Made by a program: the position numbers and the translations under genes. Shown here piece after piece: positions 4,557-43,429 of a DNA stretch of 44,820 bases. Every line of letters starts with the position of its first letter. The first letter of the stretch is position 1. Origin of the DNA: Escherichia phage SM_S22. The notes beneath the pieces are model-generated. The model was given only the letters and a program-made list of their open reading frames with translations. It was not told where the DNA came from and did no database searches. Location of the stretch: the sequence record PP627283.1; one strand, given 5' to 3'.

Positions 4557-4878
4557 ATACGCAGCGATTGGACTGGTTAGCGGTCTGGCGGTAGGATTCT
4601 GGCTAGGTGACTCCTATCGCGCTGGCGTAGTGGCGGAGGCGGCGCAAGAAGCGCAAGCCCAAGCCCAACGGCAGCAAACTAAAGTTGTTGAGCGCTCCGT
4701 GCAGGCCGAACAGGCCCGCGACGTAGAATACCGGACTATCACAAAAGAGGTTGTTAAATATGTTACGCGCCCTAACCGCCCTGATTGTAGTTTTGACGCT
4801 GAGCGCGTGCGGATCAAGCAGCGTGCCGTTGATGCCGCTAACGGAGTCGGCACTGCGACCGCCGTGCAAGTTCGATAA
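4549..4878 (+). CDS. i-spanin (Rz-like), probable GTG start
   Basis: N-terminal TM segment IKYAAIGLVSGLAVGFWLG followed by A/Q/E-rich coiled-coil region; GGGGG RBS before GTG at 4549. Confidence 0.5.
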   Translation: MIKYAAIGLVSGLAVGFWLGDSYRAGVVAEAAQEAQAQAQRQQTKVVERSVQAEQARDVEYRTITKEVVKYVTRPNRPDCSFDAERVRIKQRAVDAANGVGTATAVQVR

Positions 4879-4990
4879 CCCGTCTGCGGACCCCGACGAA
4901 GATTTGATGATTGACGTGAAAAATATGGAATGCGGGGCGAAGCTGAGGGCGCAGGTGTTGGAGTTGCAGCAAATAATTAAGGGGCCGTAA
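4760..4990 (+). CDS. o-spanin lipoprotein (Rz1-like), embedded in +1 frame of i-spanin
   Basis: Signal peptide with lipobox LTLSAC, proline-rich mature part; RBS AAAGAGG; overlapped-gene architecture typical of Rz/Rz1. Confidence 0.55.
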   Translation: MLRALTALIVVLTLSACGSSSVPLMPLTESALRPPCKFDNPSADPDEDLMIDVKNMECGAKLRAQVLELQQIIKGP

Positions 4991-16577: not shown

Positions 16578-17185
16578 CCACATTTAAATTGTACGGCGTC
16601 TTAGGACGTCGTTTTGGTAAAGTGCATAAGCTGGACTGCTTCACTCCGGGCGAGGGTATTACCGGCCTGTGCGTGAAGTTACCCGGCTTACAGGACTTTC
16701 TAATGTCAGCCCACCTGGACAATATGATGTTCAAGGTGCGCAAAGGCGACCACACTATGACCGGCTATGATGAGCTGGGTGAGTTCCACGGCGACCGCGT
16801 AGTGACCATCGCGCCGGTTATGACGGGCGCAAAAAGCGGACTGGGCCAATTGCTGGCGGGTGTAGCAATCGTGGTGGCGTCGTTCTATACCGGCGGGCTT
16901 GCGACTGCCGCTTTCGGAGCTTCAGCGGCGACCGCGGCCTCTATCGGTGCAGCGACGTTTTCGTTCGGGATGTCGATGGCGCTGGGTGGCGTTATGCAAT
17001 TGCTGTCCCCACAGCCGAAAGGATTGCAGACCCGGCAGGACGTGGATAACAAAGCGTCGTATGCGTTCGGCGGCCCTGTAAACACGACCGCGCAAGGTAC
17101 GGCGCTTGGTGTATTATGGGGCGAGCGTGAGATCGGCGGCGCTATTATTTCAGCCGGAATCGTAACCGAGGATTTGAACGAATGA
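16568..17185 (+). CDS. tail assembly protein I-like
   Basis: 205 aa; N-terminal soluble part then Gly/Ala-rich hydrophobic region; between K-like and J-like genes. Confidence 0.5.
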   Translation: MAMTTFKLYGVLGRRFGKVHKLDCFTPGEGITGLCVKLPGLQDFLMSAHLDNMMFKVRKGDHTMTGYDELGEFHGDRVVTIAPVMTGAKSGLGQLLAGVAIVVASFYTGGLATAAFGASAATAASIGAATFSFGMSMALGGVMQLLSPQPKGLQTRQDVDNKASYAFGGPVNTTAQGTALGVLWGEREIGGAIISAGIVTEDLNE

Positions 17186-20100
17186 CGATTGTCTATGATG
17201 TCACAGGCCATAAAGGCGGCGGTGGCAAACAGCACACCCCACAGGAGACACCCGATAGCCTGCATTCGCTGGCTAAAATCCGCATCTTGCTTGCGCTGGG
17301 AGAAGGTGAGTTCGAAGGTATTCCAGACCCTAACGAATTACGGCGGCGCGTATATCTGGACGGAACACCGATCCAGAATGCAGACCTGTCTGAAAACTTC
17401 CCAGGCGCGCGTGTGGAGTTCCGCCCAGGAACACAGCACCAGGATGTGATCCACGGATTTTCAGCGGTGGAAAGTGAGCAATCTGTCGGCGTAAAACTGG
17501 AAAACGGCACGCCGTGGGTGCGCCAGATTAACGACACCAGTTTGGACGCCGTGCGCATTCGCATCGGCATTCCGGCCCTGTACACTAACGAAGATAATGG
17601 CGACCTGGTGGGCGGGCGCATCGACTATAAGATCGTTGTGTATACGGATAACGCCGACCCGCGTGAGTTCAGATTCGCCGCCGTTGGTAAAACAATGTCG
17701 CTATATGAGCGCGACCACCGCATCGAATTACCGCCGAACGTGAATACAGGCTGGCGAGTGGAGGTGCACCGCATAACGGCAGACTCCACATCGGCGAAAG
17801 TGGTTAATGATATCCAGGTGCAATCCATCACTGAGATTATCGACGCCCGCCTGCGTTACCCGCTAACCGCGCTGTTGTTTGTGGAGTTCGACGCCAAAGC
17901 GTTCCAGAACATCCCGCGCGTGTCCATCAAGTGCAAAGGCCGCAAAGTTCTAATACCGAACAACTACGACCCGATTAATCATACCTATTCTGGTGACTGG
18001 GATGGCACGTTTAAACGCGCATGGACGGATAACCCTGCGTGGCACTGGTATGATATTTGTATTACTGAGCGCTTTGGCCTCGGTCGTCGTATCAAACCGC
18101 AAATGCTAAACCGATACGCGCTTTACCAGATTGCGCAGCGCTGCGATCAGCTGGTCAGTGACGGCAACGGCGGGCGGGAAATCCGATTTAAGAATGATAT
18201 GTACATTCAGTCGCAGACCGACGCCTGGACCGTGCTTAAGGATTTAGCCGCTATCTTTGCCGGTATGACCTGGTGGGGCAATCAGATGTTAAATATCGTC
18301 AGTGACCAGCCGGTCGCCGCGGTGTCGCACACTATCACCAACGCCTCGGTCATTGATGGGCGATTCGACTACGCATCCGGTAGCCAGAAAACACGGTATT
18401 CCACATTCGCGGTAGCATACGGCAACCCGAAGAACCACTACGAAGACGCCATCGCAACGGGCCAGCGCGTCGAACTGGTGCGCCGCCATAAGATTAACCG
18501 CCTTGATATTACGGCGATCGGCTGTACGCGTGAATCAGAAGCGCAACGCCGCGGGCACTGGGCGCTAATCTCCAACCAGCTTGACCAGCAAGTTAGCTTT
18601 AAGGTTGGCATGGAAGGACTATTCTTTATTCCGGGTAGCGTAGTAGCGATCGCCGATACAAACATTTCTGGCGGCTTTGAGACACGCGGCGGTCGTCTGT
18701 TGTCAGATCCAGGCACGCGGACGGTGCTGAACACAGACAGCGAAATCACGTTCCGCCCTGGCGATAAATTCCTGGTACGCACCGATAGCGGTAATGTGGA
18801 GACTCGCGAGATCGCCAGCGTCAATGGCAACAAGGTTACGCTAAAAACCGCACTGGACGCCGACCCGATTCCTGATCAGCCGTTTTGCGTCGATGGCAAT
18901 GATATCCAGTTGCAGAAGTTCCGCATCACCGACCTGGAATATGACGACTCTACCAGCACTTTTTCAGTGCGCGGGATCGAGTACAACGATAGTAAATATG
19001 ATGCCGTCGATAATGGCGCTCGCCTTGACCCAGGCATCTTTACGCAAGTTCCTGACGGCGTAATGAAGGGGCCGGAGTCCGTGACCATCACCCCGTCGCA
19101 GATTTCATCGCAAGGCCAGCTAATCACCAACGTGGATATTGTCTTCCCTCCGGTGAAGGATGCCGTGGTGTATGAAATCCAGTGGCGACGTACCAGCTTA
19201 CAGAATATGGAAATCCAGTGGGGTAACGACTGGGTGAATATCCCGCGCACGGCGTCGAATGGGGCGCACATACCTAACGTGTTTTCCGGCAACTACCAGG
19301 CACGCGTCCGCGCGATCGGCATGGGTGAGATTTCATCCCCGTGGGTGTCGTCTGCCATCACGCCGATCGAAGGTCGTCTCGGGGGGCTTAACGCGCCTAT
19401 AATCACCAACGCGATTTCAGGCCTTCACCAAATTTTGTGGAAGTGGAATCACAACAACGCCGCGACCGATATTTCATACACGGAATTGCAGGTACGCAAG
19501 CCAGGTACGGAGGAATGGCACTTCCTCACTAACGTTCCGTATCCAGGTGCGGAATACGCGCAAACGTCGCTGGAGTTCGGCATTTACCAGCAGTTGCGCG
19601 CCCGTGTAGCGGATAAAATCGGCAACCTGTCGGACTGGTCCGCCCCGTTTGAAGGCCAGGTGAGTGACAAAGTTGACGAGTACATGAAGGGGCTTGATGA
19701 CGAGTTCTTGACTTCCGAGGATGGTAAACGCTTCCAGGAAGCGATCGACACCATGCCGCAAGGCATTTATGAAGCCATGCTCACGGACGCGCAGCAATTG
19801 TTCAACGCCCGCACCGAGTACAAGGGTATTTATGCGGAAATCTCGGTCGCGTATAACGTGGCGGCGGACGCGCATAAAGCCGTAGCGCAACTGGAAACGC
19901 TGATCGGCACTCGTCTTGACGATGCTGAAGCGGCGATCCATACGTTGCAGACCGCGCAAAGCACTCATGAACAAGCGTTCGCCCAGTACCAACAAACTGT
20001 TGCCGCTAAGTTCGGGGAACAGGAAGCCGCCATCCAGCAGGTACAAACGGCAACGGCAGACGTAGCGGGCGCACTGGCGGAGTATAAGACCCAGGTCGCG

Positions 20101-20601
20101 GCGCAGTTCGGTCAGCAGTCCGCAGCTATCGAGCAGAAGATGACGTCTTCGTTTAACCACGCGGGCGGTAGTGCCACATACAGCCTTAAGGCTGGCGTGA
20201 CGTATAACGGGACTTACTACGATGCCGGTATGCAGCTTTCGGTCGTGGCGGAAGGTGGCGCGGTTAAATCGCGTATTGCGTTCAAGGCGGACCAGTTCTA
20301 CATCATGCATCCGTCCAATGGGACGCTGTCGTCTGCGTTTATTGTGGACGGTGGCGCGGTGTATATCGACACGGCACGCATCAAGAACGCGTCCATCAAC
20401 TTCGCGCAGATAACAGACACGCTGCAATCGAATAACTACGCCGGCAGCACGCGCGGCTGGCGCTTAGGGAAAGATGGAACGTTTATCAACCTGGGCACCG
20501 GTAGCGGCGGCGGGATGAAACAGACGAACACAAGAATCAGCGTGAAGGACGGAAACGGCGTTCTCCGCGTGCAGATTGGTGAGCTTACTGGTAGCTGGTA
20601 G
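17182..20601 (+). CDS. central tail fibre / host specificity protein J-like
   Basis: 1139 aa, largest ORF, follows M/L/K/I-like genes; terminator after stop. Confidence 0.75.
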   Translation: MTIVYDVTGHKGGGGKQHTPQETPDSLHSLAKIRILLALGEGEFEGIPDPNELRRRVYLDGTPIQNADLSENFPGARVEFRPGTQHQDVIHGFSAVESEQSVGVKLENGTPWVRQINDTSLDAVRIRIGIPALYTNEDNGDLVGGRIDYKIVVYTDNADPREFRFAAVGKTMSLYERDHRIELPPNVNTGWRVEVHRITADSTSAKVVNDIQVQSITEIIDARLRYPLTALLFVEFDAKAFQNIPRVSIKCKGRKVLIPNNYDPINHTYSGDWDGTFKRAWTDNPAWHWYDICITERFGLGRRIKPQMLNRYALYQIAQRCDQLVSDGNGGREIRFKNDMYIQSQTDAWTVLKDLAAIFAGMTWWGNQMLNIVSDQPVAAVSHTITNASVIDGRFDYASGSQKTRYSTFAVAYGNPKNHYEDAIATGQRVELVRRHKINRLDITAIGCTRESEAQRRGHWALISNQLDQQVSFKVGMEGLFFIPGSVVAIADTNISGGFETRGGRLLSDPGTRTVLNTDSEITFRPGDKFLVRTDSGNVETREIASVNGNKVTLKTALDADPIPDQPFCVDGNDIQLQKFRITDLEYDDSTSTFSVRGIEYNDSKYDAVDNGARLDPGIFTQVPDGVMKGPESVTITPSQISSQGQLITNVDIVFPPVKDAVVYEIQWRRTSLQNMEIQWGNDWVNIPRTASNGAHIPNVFSGNYQARVRAIGMGEISSPWVSSAITPIEGRLGGLNAPIITNAISGLHQILWKWNHNNAATDISYTELQVRKPGTEEWHFLTNVPYPGAEYAQTSLEFGIYQQLRARVADKIGNLSDWSAPFEGQVSDKVDEYMKGLDDEFLTSEDGKRFQEAIDTMPQGIYEAMLTDAQQLFNARTEYKGIYAEISVAYNVAADAHKAVAQLETLIGTRLDDAEAAIHTLQTAQSTHEQAFAQYQQTVAAKFGEQEAAIQQVQTATADVAGALAEYKTQVAAQFGQQSAAIEQKMTSSFNHAGGSATYSLKAGVTYNGTYYDAGMQLSVVAEGGAVKSRIAFKADQFYIMHPSNGTLSSAFIVDGGAVYIDTARIKNASINFAQITDTLQSNNYAGSTRGWRLGKDGTFINLGTGSGGGMKQTNTRISVKDGNGVLRVQIGELTGSW

Positions 20602-20605
20602 TATA

Positions 20606-20624
20606 GGGGCTTCGGCCCCTTTTT
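20606..20624 (+). terminator. intrinsic terminator
   Basis: GGGGC-TTCG-GCCCC followed by TTTTT. Confidence 0.55.
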
Positions 20625-20637
20625 AACGAGGTTATTT

Positions 20638-20940
20638 ATGGCATTCGGTATCGCAACGTGGGACGCTCAAGGACGCCCAAACAACTACGGCATTAAACCG
20701 GTAAGCGTGATCGGAAGGATTCATCTTGCGGAAGGACAAAAATCAGGCGCATGGTCGTTTCCTGTACCGGCGGGGATGAAGGTCGGATACGTGGTCGCAC
20801 TGGATAAAGGCGCGGTAGGACCAGGGCGCAGAATATCCGCTAGCGGGAACACTATCACGGTTTCCGCGGCAAGTGCGGTAGGTGGCGGGGTTTACTCCGC
20901 ATCTGAATGTGACGTTATTGTTTTTGTGGAGCGAGCATAA
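20638..20940 (+). CDS. hypothetical protein
   Basis: 100 aa; RBS GAGG; downstream of J-like gene. Confidence 0.4.
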   Translation: MAFGIATWDAQGRPNNYGIKPVSVIGRIHLAEGQKSGAWSFPVPAGMKVGYVVALDKGAVGPGRRISASGNTITVSAASAVGGGVYSASECDVIVFVERA

Positions 20941-21614
20941 TGGCTAATTACGGCGCGTTGATTGACTTACCAAACGGCAACCCGTTTATCACACCAGAAT
21001 CGACGCCGTTTTGTCTATTCCGCCGTGTGGTTGTTGGGTCTTCGGCTAACGGCACTGCGCAGTCGGCGGCTGCCGATATTAATTTGGGTGGTGACTACCC
21101 TGCAATAGCGTTTGTGAAAACTACGCACACCGCCCAGCCGACCGTCGTAGGGTCTTCTCGCGTTGGTAATGTGGTGAAGGTGAGCGCCAGCAATCCATTC
21201 GGGCAAGGCTTCACGATGACGGCTTACATCTTTGCCATATTCCCACAGACCCTTCCGCGGTGGGGCTTCGCTATTTGGGATAAGACGGGGAAGCTAGTGC
21301 TTACTAATGAGAGTCGCGTACTAAGCGATTTAGTTACCGTCGGATCGCCAGGCGCTAACGGGGGGATTAACATTGACCAAACGCTAAACGGCAGCTACGC
21401 CGTCGCTCCGGGCATATTGGGGTCTACGCTGATCCGGTTTTTTGTGCAGGGCCAGCCGCAGGTAATATCGGTAACGGCGTACACGGGGGCCAGATTCGAT
21501 GGGTCGCGAACGCGTATATCGGCAGCGTCGTCGGGGAACGCCACGGGGGATGTGGTGGGGTATACTAACAACGGCAACGCGATTATGGCGATTAACACTG
21601 CAAATTATGATTGA
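20940..21614 (+). CDS. hypothetical tail-associated protein
   Basis: 224 aa, Gly/Ser/Thr/Asn-rich, translationally coupled to previous gene (TAATG). Confidence 0.4.
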   Translation: MANYGALIDLPNGNPFITPESTPFCLFRRVVVGSSANGTAQSAAADINLGGDYPAIAFVKTTHTAQPTVVGSSRVGNVVKVSASNPFGQGFTMTAYIFAIFPQTLPRWGFAIWDKTGKLVLTNESRVLSDLVTVGSPGANGGINIDQTLNGSYAVAPGILGSTLIRFFVQGQPQVISVTAYTGARFDGSRTRISAASSGNATGDVVGYTNNGNAIMAINTANYD

Positions 21615-21617
21615 AGA

Positions 21618-21640
21618 AAGCCCCGAAAGGGGCTTATTTG
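21618..21640. terminator. hairpin between convergent genes
   Basis: AAGCCCC-GAAA-GGGGCTT. Confidence 0.45.
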
Positions 21641-21852
21641 CAGGTTGTGCTTTTGAAATGGTCTACAGACACGTACTGGAAGCTAAACGGATATCCCGCC
21701 CTTAGCATTTTATGCCCGGAGAAGTCTGCAACACCATACACAGGGACCGCATAATCCATACCGCCAGTGTGGTATGTCGCGTCGCAGATCTTGCCAGGAA
21801 TAGTGGAGCAACCAGACAAAAGAACCGCACAAATCATAATTAAGGTTTTCAT
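21634..21852 (-). CDS. small lipoprotein (superinfection-exclusion candidate)
   Basis: 72 aa from ATG 21852 (RBS AGGGGA); signal peptide MKTLIMICAVLLSGC with lipobox; promoter TTGCAA-16-TAATAC upstream; divergent from tail fibre gene. Confidence 0.55.
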   Translation of the reverse strand: MKTLIMICAVLLSGCSTIPGKICDATYHTGGMDYAVPVYGVADFSGHKMLRAGYPFSFQYVSVDHFKSTTCK

Positions 21853-21932
21853 GGTATCATCCCCTATATTTGGTTGAGTTTTAGTATTACACCGCTCAGC
21901 CAGGATTGCAACCAATTTAAGAGGATTCAGCT

Positions 21933-23549
21933 ATGGCAGCGGGTACGCTATCCGTAACGAACAATAGCAAGGCGGTAGTAGGGGTCGGCACAACGTTTAC
22001 CGCGTTTAAAGCTGGCGACTTCCTAACGCTGGTGGTAGGGCAAGTCCCCTACACCGTGGCAATCGCATCAATCGAAAGTAACACGGCGCTTACGCTGGTG
22101 TTGCCGTTCGACGGCCCAACGGCAACCGGCCTCGCGTGGGATGGCGTTAAGCGCGATACCATGTCGCTGGCAACGATGGGCGTTACCGTACAGGCGCAAA
22201 AAGCATTGCGCTTGATGATCGCAGATGAAAACAACTGGCGTGCAATCTTCGGCGACGCTGAAGAAATCACAGTGACGTTACCTAACGGGCAGGTTATGCA
22301 GGGCATGTCATGGGGCTATCTGTCGCAGCTAATGAAGCAGATCGACCCTGTGGAGATGCGCAACCTGCAACAACAAGCCGCCGCATCGGAAGCAGCCGCG
22401 CAAGGATTTCGCAATGAGGCCGAAGGCTTCAAGACCGAGACGGCGGGTATTCGCGACGCCACCAATGCCATCAAGACGCAGACCAACCAGATTAAGGCTG
22501 ATACGCAGGCCATCAAGGACCAGACGAACCAGATCAAGACGGATACGCAGGCCATCAAGGACCAGACGAACCAGATCAAGACTGATACTGGCGTTATTCG
22601 AGATCAGGCCAATACCGCGAAGACGGACGCGCAAGCCGCCCGCGATGCCGCGCAGGGGTATCGGGATGAAGCCGAAGACTTCAAAAACGCGATCGACCCT
22701 ACGCAATTCATGAAGAAGTCGCAGAACCTGGCAGACGTCGCCGATAAATCGGCGGCACGCGCTAATCTTGGTTTGGGGTCGGCAGCTACGGAGAACACCG
22801 TTCCGATCGAGAAAGGAGGAACCGCCGCGACGACTGTAGCCGCTGCGCGCACTAATTTCGGGTTGGGCGATAACAATAACGTAAAACTTGGCACGTTGCG
22901 CCTAAACGGGGGTGAATCGCTAGTCTTCAATGATGTCGAAAGAAACGGCTTAGCACTATCCAACGTGTCGTACGGCATTGACAGTTGGGTAGGCTTCACC
23001 ATGCATAAATGGTACGCCGACTGGACACGCGCAGGAATTGTGCGTGCGGGTGACACCCACGTGTCAGACTACCGCATCCACGTGTGGAGAGATGGTATTA
23101 CTGAAGCGCTGTTCCGCTTCCTGCCGGACGGCAGGCTTATTCAGGGTAACAGCAACAACCTTTCCGTAAATGAGTTTCAGAAAGCAGCGCTGTCGGACCG
23201 CGACCTTAAAAAAGAAATCCAATACACTGACGGCGAGGAAAGCTACAACCGCGTTCGTCAATGGCTTCCGGCAATGTTCAAGTATAAGGAGTCTGACGTA
23301 CAGCGATACGGCCTTATCGCGCAGGACCTGGCAAGGATTGACCCGGAATACGTGCATTTGCTGCCGGGTTATGCCATTTATGAGGATATCAAGGGGGTTG
23401 ACGAGGAAGGGAACGAGGTTGTAGTCGACCGCAAGGAGATCGGGTATACCGACGATGTGCTGTGTCTGGACAGTAACGTGCTGTTGATGGACCTGTGTGC
23501 CGCCTTCGTCCACCTGTTGCATAAAGTTGAGAAGCTAGAAGGTAAATAA
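21933..23549 (+). CDS. tail fibre with C-terminal self-cleaving intramolecular chaperone domain
   Basis: 538 aa; tandem repeats IKxQTNQIKxDTQA; C-terminal SDRDLKKEI...YGLIAQDLARIDPEYV resembles Peptidase_S74 chaperone domains of T5 L-shaped fibre and endosialidases. Confidence 0.7.
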   Translation: MAAGTLSVTNNSKAVVGVGTTFTAFKAGDFLTLVVGQVPYTVAIASIESNTALTLVLPFDGPTATGLAWDGVKRDTMSLATMGVTVQAQKALRLMIADENNWRAIFGDAEEITVTLPNGQVMQGMSWGYLSQLMKQIDPVEMRNLQQQAAASEAAAQGFRNEAEGFKTETAGIRDATNAIKTQTNQIKADTQAIKDQTNQIKTDTQAIKDQTNQIKTDTGVIRDQANTAKTDAQAARDAAQGYRDEAEDFKNAIDPTQFMKKSQNLADVADKSAARANLGLGSAATENTVPIEKGGTAATTVAAARTNFGLGDNNNVKLGTLRLNGGESLVFNDVERNGLALSNVSYGIDSWVGFTMHKWYADWTRAGIVRAGDTHVSDYRIHVWRDGITEALFRFLPDGRLIQGNSNNLSVNEFQKAALSDRDLKKEIQYTDGEESYNRVRQWLPAMFKYKESDVQRYGLIAQDLARIDPEYVHLLPGYAIYEDIKGVDEEGNEVVVDRKEIGYTDDVLCLDSNVLLMDLCAAFVHLLHKVEKLEGK

Positions 23550-23556
23550 GGAGAAG

Positions 23557-23580
23557 GGGCCGTGCGGCCCTTTTTTTTTT
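23557..23580 (+). terminator. intrinsic terminator
   Basis: GC hairpin followed by ten T residues. Confidence 0.6.
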
Positions 23581-24154
23581 AGTTTGAGTTCTCCCAGTCC
23601 ATTTTGCGCCGCACCAGCGGGCTTTCGTAGTATTCCTTACCATCCACTTCCACCAGGGGCCAGTCGTTCACTATCACGTATGGCTCCGCAATATCCTCAA
23701 TCACGCCATGCGCGCTATGTTGTCCGAAATCTACGCCCACCAGGATAACCCCGGCAACGCGACGAGTGAGGTACTCGCGAGCGCAACGTGCCTCGACCAG
23801 TCCTCGACGTATGCCGCTGGTGGCCTTAACCTCGTAGGTCCAGACGGCATCGATCACATGCTCGCGGAAGTCGGGACCGGATTTTACCTTGCGCTTGCCG
23901 ACCATGATAATATCGCCTCGGTCGATAGTGTTAGCGCTAAACAGGCCGGTACGCATGAGTAATCCTTGCGGGATACAGCTACGCCCGCCCGCCTGCCCTT
24001 CGAGGTACATACCCGCAAACATCTCACCAAGTACCCCGACAAGACGGCTTTGCTTGCAAGCGTCGGACTTATACCGCCACTGGTCAAACTCGATGCTTGC
24101 TATCATTGCCGCCAGGTGGAATTGTTTACCAGATATTTCATATTCGCCGTACAT
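23579..24154 (-). CDS. hypothetical protein, possible PD-(D/E)XK-type nuclease
   Basis: 191 aa; weak GDIIMVGK...PDF...YEVK pattern; last gene of minus-strand block. Confidence 0.3.
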   Translation of the reverse strand: MYGEYEISGKQFHLAAMIASIEFDQWRYKSDACKQSRLVGVLGEMFAGMYLEGQAGGRSCIPQGLLMRTGLFSANTIDRGDIIMVGKRKVKSGPDFREHVIDAVWTYEVKATSGIRRGLVEARCAREYLTRRVAGVILVGVDFGQHSAHGVIEDIAEPYVIVNDWPLVEVDGKEYYESPLVRRKMDWENSN

Positions 24155-42001: not shown

Positions 42002-42292
42002 ATGGATAAGCTAAACGAGTGGTTATTCGCCCTTGCGTGTCTTGCTGGTGGCTTCGTAGGCGCACGCATTCATGGCGAGGCAACGAAAGGGCCGTTGAAC
42101 TTCGTTTTATATGTCGTAGTTGGCTTCCTGTGTGCCATATTTGGTGCGCCAGCTATCGCCGAGTGGGCGGGCTTATCGGGCGAGCGCACTGTCGCCGGTT
42201 TGGGCTTCGTAACTGCCATCTTCTGGATGCCAATAGCTGACCGGATCCGGGAGACAATTGCGACGCTACACCTTCCGGGGGGCGCAAAATGA
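42002..42292 (+). CDS. holin (putative)
   Basis: 96 aa with three predicted TM segments; precedes lysozyme. Confidence 0.5.
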   Translation: MDKLNEWLFALACLAGGFVGARIHGEATKGPLNFVLYVVVGFLCAIFGAPAIAEWAGLSGERTVAGLGFVTAIFWMPIADRIRETIATLHLPGGAK

Positions 42293-42534
42293 TTATCTCC
42301 GTCCTGTTGTTTGTTATCATTGGGGCTTCGTCCCTGTTTAACGTGTATGCGCCGTCCGTCAAGGATGGCATTTTAGGCCGGGTGTTATATCTGCTAACGG
42401 CGATGGTCTGCATTATCGGACTGTTGCAAACAGGAGACGTATCTGACACCACCTGGGCCGCGTTAATCTGGCTGTTTGCATTGCGCACGCTGCGTAATGC
42501 TGTTTTAAATGGGGTAAAACATGCGATTCAGTGA
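42289..42534 (+). CDS. membrane protein (second holin or antiholin candidate)
   Basis: 81 aa with hydrophobic segments; coupled to neighbours. Confidence 0.4.
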   Translation: MIISVLLFVIIGASSLFNVYAPSVKDGILGRVLYLLTAMVCIIGLLQTGDVSDTTWAALIWLFALRTLRNAVLNGVKHAIQ

Positions 42535-43012
42535 CAACGGTCTACGATTTACGGCAGCATGGGAGCAATTCAGCCCAGTGCCGTATTTTGCGACTAAGAA
42601 AGAGCAGGCACGCGGCCTGTACACCTGGGGTTATGGGCATACTGGCACGAACCCGCCGCGGAGCATTACCCGTGCGGAAGCACTGGAGCTACTCAAGCGA
42701 GATGTGGCATATGCCGAGAACTGGGTGAACAAGTACGCACACCCGAGCATTAATCAGGCGCAATTCGACGCGCTGGTGGACCTGGTTATCAATGCTGGCC
42801 CGGGTCCGATCATGCCGGACGACGTCGCCGGTGACTTCGACGATGCTGTCCGCCTGGGTGACTGGGCAAAGGTGCGGGCTATACTGCCACAATTCCGCAA
42901 GCAAGGCGGGGAAGTGCTGAAGGGGTTAGTCCGTCGAGCAATCGGCAGGCAGGCGCTATTCGATGGTAAGCAGTGGGACGTTGCCGAGAAAATCGGTCGT
43001 AACGCAGCATAA
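42521..43012 (+). CDS. endolysin, phage lysozyme (GH24-like)
   Basis: 163 aa; WEQF...GLYTWGYGHTG and later QAQFDALVDLVINAG match phage lysozyme pattern. Confidence 0.7.
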   Translation: MRFSDNGLRFTAAWEQFSPVPYFATKKEQARGLYTWGYGHTGTNPPRSITRAEALELLKRDVAYAENWVNKYAHPSINQAQFDALVDLVINAGPGPIMPDDVAGDFDDAVRLGDWAKVRAILPQFRKQGGEVLKGLVRRAIGRQALFDGKQWDVAEKIGRNAA

Positions 43013-43021
43013 GGGGATGAT

Positions 43022-43429
43022 ATGTTAAAAAGTATTCTTGATCATAATGCGGACGCGCTCGACGCGTTGGCTAAAACGGACGACGCGGAAGCGCGTCGTA
43101 TCATTGCGGACACCATCAGCCATGCTGGGGTGTTTGGCGCAAGCCTTCCGGGTCCGAAACCAGAGGTAAAAGTGACAAGCGCCACGGTAACTGTAGCTCC
43201 CGAGGCGGTTACAATCGGCACCCCGGCGAAGGCTACTGCGGCGGTACAACCGGCAGGGGCGACCAATAAATCCGGCGTGTGGATTAGCGGGTCGCCGTCA
43301 ATCGCAACCGTGGATGCCTCCGGCAATATCGAAGGTAAAGCCGCCGGATCTGTCGATATTATTTGGGTGGCTAAGGATGGAAGCGGGGTATCGGGCCGCA
43401 AAACGGTAACTGTGGCAAACGTAGAGTAA
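43022..43429 (+). CDS. Ig-like (Big_2-type) domain protein
   Basis: 135 aa; C-terminal beta-rich segment typical of Ig-like domains. Confidence 0.45.
   Translation: MLKSILDHNADALDALAKTDDAEARRIIADTISHAGVFGASLPGPKPEVKVTSATVTVAPEAVTIGTPAKATAAVQPAGATNKSGVWISGSPSIATVDASGNIEGKAAGSVDIIWVAKDGSGVSGRKTVTVANVE

Follow-up and report, generated by a model that had tools for sequence, protein, structure and literature searches.

A Cor-family lipoprotein of the Dhillonvirus phage SM_S22, a probable periplasmic lock on FhuA that is encoded beside a host-recognition cassette

What does a single inverted gene among the tail genes of a phage encode, and with which of its neighbours does it work? The question is raised by Escherichia phage SM_S22, of which we analysed a stretch of 44,820 nucleotides (record PP627283.1; hereafter the window). 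The whole stretch is a near-complete Dhillonvirus genome with ~93% nucleotide identity to vB_EcoS-UDS3lw, Envy/Sloth and JLBYU37. The genes across positions 1 to 23549 (terminase, head and tail) lie on the plus strand, and the only minus-strand gene among them is the one considered here, which we call cor. Our answer is that the gene belongs to the Cor family and is a routine, previously catalogued example of it in a Dhillonvirus phage. In all probability its product is a lipoprotein that locks FhuA from the periplasm in a phage of a virulent group, serving superinfection exclusion and the protection of progeny, and its gene travels as part of a cassette. The features of this region are as follows.

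17182..20601, plus strand: J-like central tail tip protein (1139 aa), whose gene opens the host-recognition cassette (Pfam FNIII-A_GpJ, Phage-tail_3 and Phage_Tail_Tip; PHROG 31)
20638..20940, plus strand: 100-aa protein of the same candidate receptor-binding locus (PHROG 557, E=4.8e-32)
20940..21614, plus strand: 224-aa protein of the candidate receptor-binding locus, convergent with cor (PHROG 425, E=4.6e-70)
21618..21635, either strand: GC-rich hairpin AAGCCCC-GAAA-GGGGCTT, found by folding where the 224-aa gene and cor converge; it overlaps the cor stop codon
21634..21852, minus strand, stop codon included: cor gene for the 72-aa precursor of a Cor-family exclusion lipoprotein (from the ORF, its translation and family models)
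21811..21852, minus strand: signal peptide, Cor residues 1-14, MKTLIMICAVLLSG (from the lipobox and a PS51257-type rule)
21860..21865, minus strand: Shine-Dalgarno sequence AGGGGA, 7 nt before the cor ATG, read from the sequence
21883..21911, minus strand: candidate sigma-70 promoter of cor, TTGCAA, a 17-nt spacer and TG-t-AATACT (extended -10), found by eye
21933..23549, plus strand: lateral tail fibre, 538 aa, divergent neighbour of cor (PHROG 1980, E=2e-128; C-terminal Peptidase_S74 chaperone domain)

The cor ORF comprises 219 nt on the minus strand, from an ATG at 21852 to a TAA stop codon at 21636-21634, and its 72-aa translation (MKTLIMICAVLLSGCSTIPGKICDATYHTGGMDYAVPVYGVADFSGHKMLRAGYPFSFQYVSVDHFKSTTCK) begins with MKTLIMICAVLLSGCSTIPGK and ends with TTCK. 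An alternative TTG start at 21915 gives a longer ORF of 93 aa (21634..21915); the ATG start agrees with the N-termini of the Cor proteins of T1, phi80 and N15 in our alignment, and its Shine-Dalgarno sequence is kept as AGGRGA in five relatives. In Escherichia phage ZCEC10 (NC_073075, 1438-1719) the cor homologue is annotated from the upstream start as a 93-aa protein that overlaps the neighbouring fibre gene; compared with the 72-aa ATG start in other records, this looks like an annotation inconsistency. A sequence-only reading of the window had described a 72-aa protein with a lipoprotein signal (LLSGC), encoded on the opposite strand directly upstream of the tail fibre gene. The position is as it described, since the fibre ATG (21933, plus strand) lies 80 bp from cor in divergent orientation, and the interval 21634-21930 that it assigned to the gene consists of cor together with the cor-fibre intergenic spacer.

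The lipoprotein signal was likewise borne out. Lys2 is followed by a hydrophobic core (residues 3-14, mean Kyte-Doolittle 2.4), and the lipobox LLSG/C (residues 11-15), with L-S-G-C ending in Cys15, satisfies a PROSITE PS51257-type rule; the codon of the lipidation-site Cys15 (21808-21810) stands directly after the signal peptide. G14 and C15 are invariant across the Cor proteins of T1, phi80 and N15, and a signal peptidase II site is annotated at the equivalent position in the phi80 record. The residue at +2 of the mature protein is Ser, so that the protein is without an Asp inner-membrane retention signal. Since Asp at +2 keeps a lipoprotein in the inner membrane, Cor is expected by this established rule to be sorted to the outer membrane, where we infer it to reside. 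C23, C71 and the stretch R51-F56 (RAGYPF) are invariant both in the four-phage Cor alignment and in the Dhillonvirus copies, and a Cys23-Cys71 disulfide probably holds the mature domain.

The reading of this protein as a receptor-blocking lipoprotein of the Cor/Llp type was supported by family models, by identity to the Cor proteins of T1, phi80 and N15 and by the annotation of relatives. The NCBIfam equivalog model NF047972, 'phage exclusion lipoprotein Cor', matches residues 2-71 with 60.1 bits, the curated cut-off being 31 bits, and PHROG 1119, 'Cor superinfection exclusion protein', matches residues 1-72, i.e. the full length, with E=1.8e-26. A Pfam search of the 72-aa protein returned no family, and its coverage comes from NCBIfam and PHROGs instead. 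Over the full alignment, Cor is 50% identical to its counterpart in T1, 43% to that in phi80 and 40% to that in N15. A tblastn search with Cor found matches in 244 phage records, with identities of 79-93% in Dhillonviruses, ~49% in T1 and T1-like phages, and ~42% in phi80, N15 and the HK/mEp lambdoid phages; the Dhillonvirus homologues are widely annotated as 'Cor' or 'super-infection exclusion protein', and those of Envy, JLBYU37 and UDS3lw already bear the label 'Cor superinfection exclusion protein'. Across six copies of cor from Dhillonviruses, dN/dS ranges from 0.03 to 0.21 and dS reaches 1.3, and the protein is clearly under purifying selection. The two family models, the 244 records and the dN/dS values together put cor far beyond chance.

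Two readings of the gene as something other than cor can be weighed on this evidence. A chance antisense ORF in the structural operon, from which no protein is made, would be in keeping with its shortness, its place as the only minus-strand gene in a 23.5-kb plus-strand block and the failure to detect a strong promoter. However, full-length matches to curated family models, many synonymous changes at a low dN/dS, a good Shine-Dalgarno sequence and conservation across so many phage records leave this reading with practically no probability, and it was rejected on the family-model match and dN/dS. The protein might instead be an outer-membrane spanin subunit, an Rz1-like lysis lipoprotein, as it is a small phage-encoded lipoprotein of about the right size, but a genuine Rz/Rz1 pair lies elsewhere in the genome:

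4519..4878, plus strand: i-spanin, Rz (PHROG 'Rz-like spanin', E=1.6e-35)
4760..4990, plus strand: o-spanin, Rz1, with the lipobox LSAC (PHROG 'Rz-like spanin', E=2.5e-26)

No gene for an i-spanin overlaps cor or lies next to it, mature Cor has 3 Pro among its 58 residues and is not proline-rich, and the protein matches Cor models and none of the spanin models. An o-spanin identity, which we rejected because the true pair is found elsewhere, is thus scarcely credible.

The arrangement of the lysis genes deserves a remark of its own. The overlapping Rz/Rz1 pair is located among head genes, and two holin genes and an endolysin gene are found at 42002..43012 on the plus strand, so that the lysis genes are split between two locations. 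Directly after the endolysin gene, where a spanin might be expected, a plus-strand gene (43022-43429) encodes a 135-aa protein with an Ig-like domain, whose PHROG hits are families of Ig-domain structural proteins and of major tail proteins.

The gene had also been credited with its own promoter, a claim that held up only weakly. A site found by eye (TTGCAA at 21911-21906 and TG-t-AATACT at 21891-21883) matches the consensus at 8/12 positions and has the extended -10 TG, but a consensus promoter scan of the cor-fibre spacer found no site at a threshold of at least 9/12. The motif is kept in five relatives; with a spacer identity of 95%, which is no higher than background, its conservation says little, since the surrounding DNA is equally conserved. 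For cor of phi80, both a promoter of the extended -10 type and a transcription start site are entered in the record (FN582354), and in T1 we read by eye the motif TTGCAA-17-TACAAT upstream of cor. As a lone antisense gene in a plus-strand block needs a promoter, it is plausible from the sequence that cor has its own. At the other end of the gene, the hairpin at 21618-21635 has a folding energy of -14.4 kcal/mol (z = -3.45 against shuffled sequences). A terminator scanner made no call at this hairpin, whose T-tail is weak. In the T1 record, the corresponding position carries a terminator annotation, and the hairpin is likely a bidirectional terminator.

A promoter-like site is also seen on the plus strand, CAGACA-16-CATAAT (9/12, 21813-21840), which lies within the codons of the cor signal peptide and points toward the lateral fibre gene. 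One may speculate that the inversion of cor is regulatory as well, with overlapping head-to-head transcripts that set cor expression and late read-through into the fibre gene against each other. If this were true, the shut-off of the receptor would be coupled to the timing of fibre synthesis; both promoters are weak matches to the consensus, and we regard the idea as conjecture and a long shot.

The sequence-only reading had drawn attention to the fibre gene as the neighbour of interest, an arrangement it compared with those of Llp in T5 and Cor in T1 and phi80-like phages. Although cor does adjoin the fibre gene, its meaningful linkage is to the upstream cassette of the J-like, 100-aa and 224-aa genes. 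The 224-aa protein has 57% identity to gp23 of phi80 and 53% to orf31 of T1, and the 100-aa protein has 54% identity to orf32 of T1; the gene order J, ~100 aa, ~224 aa and cor is common to T1, phi80 and N15. In small siphoviruses, candidate receptor-binding loci have been described downstream of gpJ, with alleles that match the receptor without exception, and earlier work had suggested that the receptor-binding loci of siphoviruses sit together with cognate exclusion proteins (PMC8594841). From the role described in that study, the 224-aa protein is a candidate component of the receptor-binding locus. Since the same order of the J, 100-aa, 224-aa and cor genes is found in the FhuA-dependent phages T1, phi80 and N15, the functional partner of cor is the upstream cassette, and the lateral fibre is a neighbour and not the cognate receptor-binding partner.

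As for the fibre itself, its homologue in the BASEL phage KarlBarth is annotated as 'lateral tail fiber protein', and lateral fibres of the Peptidase_S74 type have been proposed to recognise surface glycans (BASEL paper, PMC8594841). When we looked for the receptor of KarlBarth (Bas17) in the main text of the BASEL paper, we found no mention of this phage. The fibre gene is a mosaic. In most relatives the match is confined to the first ~750 nt (to about 22700), and only a few phages, e.g. UDS3lw and SSL-2009a, match the C-terminal part with its Peptidase_S74 domain. Near-tandem repeats of the form QIKxDTQAIKDQTN occur in the middle of the protein. Past the fibre, the block of minus-strand genes opens with one (23579-24154) that encodes 191 aa and belongs to PHROG 10558, of unknown function; a 'restriction endonuclease' annotation is present among the UDS3lw features under the match, and its correspondence to the 191-aa gene is putative.

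Which receptor Cor might act on is suggested by close relatives. JLBYU60, JLBYU37, Envy, bob and Teewinot have been demonstrated experimentally to depend on FhuA (PMC10373560), and the Cor protein of JLBYU60 is 93% identical to that of SM_S22. Moreover, within Drexlerviridae and Dhillonvirus the three-gene Cor cassette reportedly goes together with the use of FhuA (PMC13164509, PMC8594841). FhuA is accordingly the predicted receptor of SM_S22, and from homology and the FhuA dependence of the close relatives, Cor would most likely exclude FhuA-dependent phages and inactivate the functions of FhuA.

For the way in which this might be achieved, a precedent is Llp of T5, which binds the periplasmic face of FhuA, whereupon the loops EL7/EL8 fold inward and block the receptor-binding protein; the authors of that work put the identity between Llp and Cor at ~20%, with the disulfide in common, and considered that Cor likely acts alike (PMC9586334). 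We compared Cor with known structures by means of an AlphaFold2 model of the mature protein, built from a seven-sequence alignment that is shallow because the homologue search gave only six near-identical proteins; four of the five models were poor. The best model (pLDDT 81 and pTM 0.59, with the other four near 60) is a small beta-rich domain. Its top match by Foldseek among 350,542 PDB chains is 8a60_B, that is, T5 Llp complexed with FhuA (TM 0.60/0.57, rmsd 3.3 A, 25% identity over 59 columns, which is the full length), a weak match with E=0.033, and Tudor and chromo barrels score nearly as high. When PDB sequences were searched with a Cor sequence profile, 8a60_B again came first, with E=0.035 and an alignment that covers mainly the signal peptide and the first Cys, while a single-sequence search with Cor gave chance-level matches only, 8a60_B not being among them. 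In BFVD, a Dhillonvirus homologue came first (TM 0.96), followed by lipoproteins of T5-like phages. Each of the Foldseek, profile and BFVD results is weak alone, and taken together they agree with the published Llp-like view. The single-sequence and profile searches of the PDB with Cor found no Cor-FhuA structure; an AlphaFold3 model of a T1-like Cor with FhuA has been published (PMC13164509).

On these grounds we propose the following course of events. As its canonical lipobox suggests, the precursor would be exported, acquire its lipid at Cys15 and be processed by signal peptidase II; it would come to lie in the inner leaflet of the outer membrane. There, by analogy with the FhuA-Llp complex and with the genetics of Cor, the beta-rich domain would bind the periplasmic face of the TonB-dependent transporter FhuA and, by the same analogy, lock its surface loops, so that phage receptor-binding proteins could no longer engage. 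An infected cell would then stop adsorbing further FhuA-dependent phages, which is superinfection exclusion, and after lysis the progeny would not be wasted on FhuA in cell debris, a protection that has been proposed for both Cor and Llp in virulent phages (PMC11990801). As the gene is inverted and the phage comes from a virulent group, cor is expected to be expressed during lytic infection. Finally, cor would travel as one cassette with its cognate recognition genes, in the order J-like tip, 100-aa, 224-aa and cor.

Two departures from this scheme leave the family assignment intact and change either the route or the target. Cor might inactivate FhuA by a route other than that of Llp, for instance via other outer-membrane proteins or from the outer face. 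In the published AlphaFold3 work, the initial docking placed Cor on FhuA's outer face, and periplasmic docking was obtained only once FhuA residues 1-70 had been removed (PMC13164509); the mechanism of Cor is also described as not elucidated in a 2026 preprint (10.64898/2026.03.26.714494). However, the best structural match in the PDB is Llp, with a common Cys pattern, and a lipoprotein with Ser at +2 should lie in the inner leaflet and face the periplasm, so we consider such a route unlikely. Alternatively, this Cor-family lipoprotein might block an outer-membrane receptor other than FhuA, e.g. BtuB or another TonB-dependent transporter, given that Cor-like proteins have been reported in phages that use BtuB (PMC13164509) and that receptor-binding loci pass horizontally between small siphoviruses (PMC8594841). 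Against this, the 100-aa and 224-aa neighbours have 53-57% identity to their counterparts in T1 and phi80, both of them FhuA phages, the region 20600-22687 has 93.5% nucleotide identity to the FhuA-dependent JLBYU60 (PMC10373560), and the full three-gene cassette has been reported only with FhuA use (PMC13164509), all of which makes a different receptor very unlikely. A periplasmic lock on FhuA is therefore the reading that we prefer.

The Cor family, its position in the genome and its association with receptor-binding loci that target FhuA have already been described, and close relatives are already annotated accordingly. As a marker, the cor cassette predicts FhuA as the terminal receptor of SM_S22, and it further predicts that infected cells exclude other FhuA-dependent phages, T1, T5 and phi80 among them, which is relevant to the design of phage cocktails.

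Several known systems may be set beside cor of SM_S22. Rtp45 of phage Rtp is also an exclusion lipoprotein encoded in a receptor-binding locus downstream of J in a small siphovirus (PMC12685063), but it acts on LptDE, its target being LptD (PDB 9RPS); a comparison of the Cor profile with the Rtp45 structure (9rps_D) gave no meaningful match, with E=2.8 and an alignment restricted to the signal peptide. Llp of T5 resembles Cor as a small outer-membrane lipoprotein whose gene adjoins receptor-binding genes in an FhuA-dependent virulent siphovirus, and it has an equivalent three-Cys pattern. However, its sequence similarity to Cor is marginal (E about 0.03 in the structure and profile searches), and T5 uses the dedicated receptor-binding protein pb5, whereas SM_S22 has the cassette of J, 100-aa and 224-aa proteins. 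We regard Llp as a mechanistic analogue and a probable distant homologue of Cor, and cor itself falls outside the Llp sequence family.

The Cor proteins of phi80 and N15, which are lysogenic conversion lipoproteins, are closer to ours, at 43% and 40% identity, respectively, and their genes too are preceded by a cassette of J, gp22 and gp23. The phi80 record annotates the blocking of FhuA by phi80 Cor, and it lists cor as a moron gene under a promoter of its own. These two phages are temperate and their cor genes are co-oriented with the tail genes, whereas in SM_S22 cor is inverted and the phage belongs to a virulent group. Closer still is Cor of T1 (orf30, AAP49969) and of the T1-like Drexlerviridae, which has 50% identity over its full length and shares the lipobox, the Cys pair and the RAGYPF motif. 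As in SM_S22, cor of the virulent phage T1 is inverted and converges on the genes for the 100-aa and ~225-aa proteins that follow a J-like gene, with a hairpin terminator between them. The two phages differ in classification, T1 belonging to the family Drexlerviridae and SM_S22 to the genus Dhillonvirus, and in the divergent neighbours of cor, which in T1 are a small hypothetical ORF followed by recombination genes and in SM_S22 the lateral tail fibre gene. The closest counterparts are the genes for the 'Cor superinfection exclusion protein' of other Dhillonviruses (JLBYU60, Gluttony, Envy, Teewinot, SSL-2009a and others), whose products are 79-93% identical to that of SM_S22 and which occupy the identical locus between the same flanking genes. 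The Dhillonvirus copies differ only allelically, and the differences are concentrated in the stretch just after the lipidated Cys (STIPG versus ANMPS or AGMPS) and at residues 28-30.
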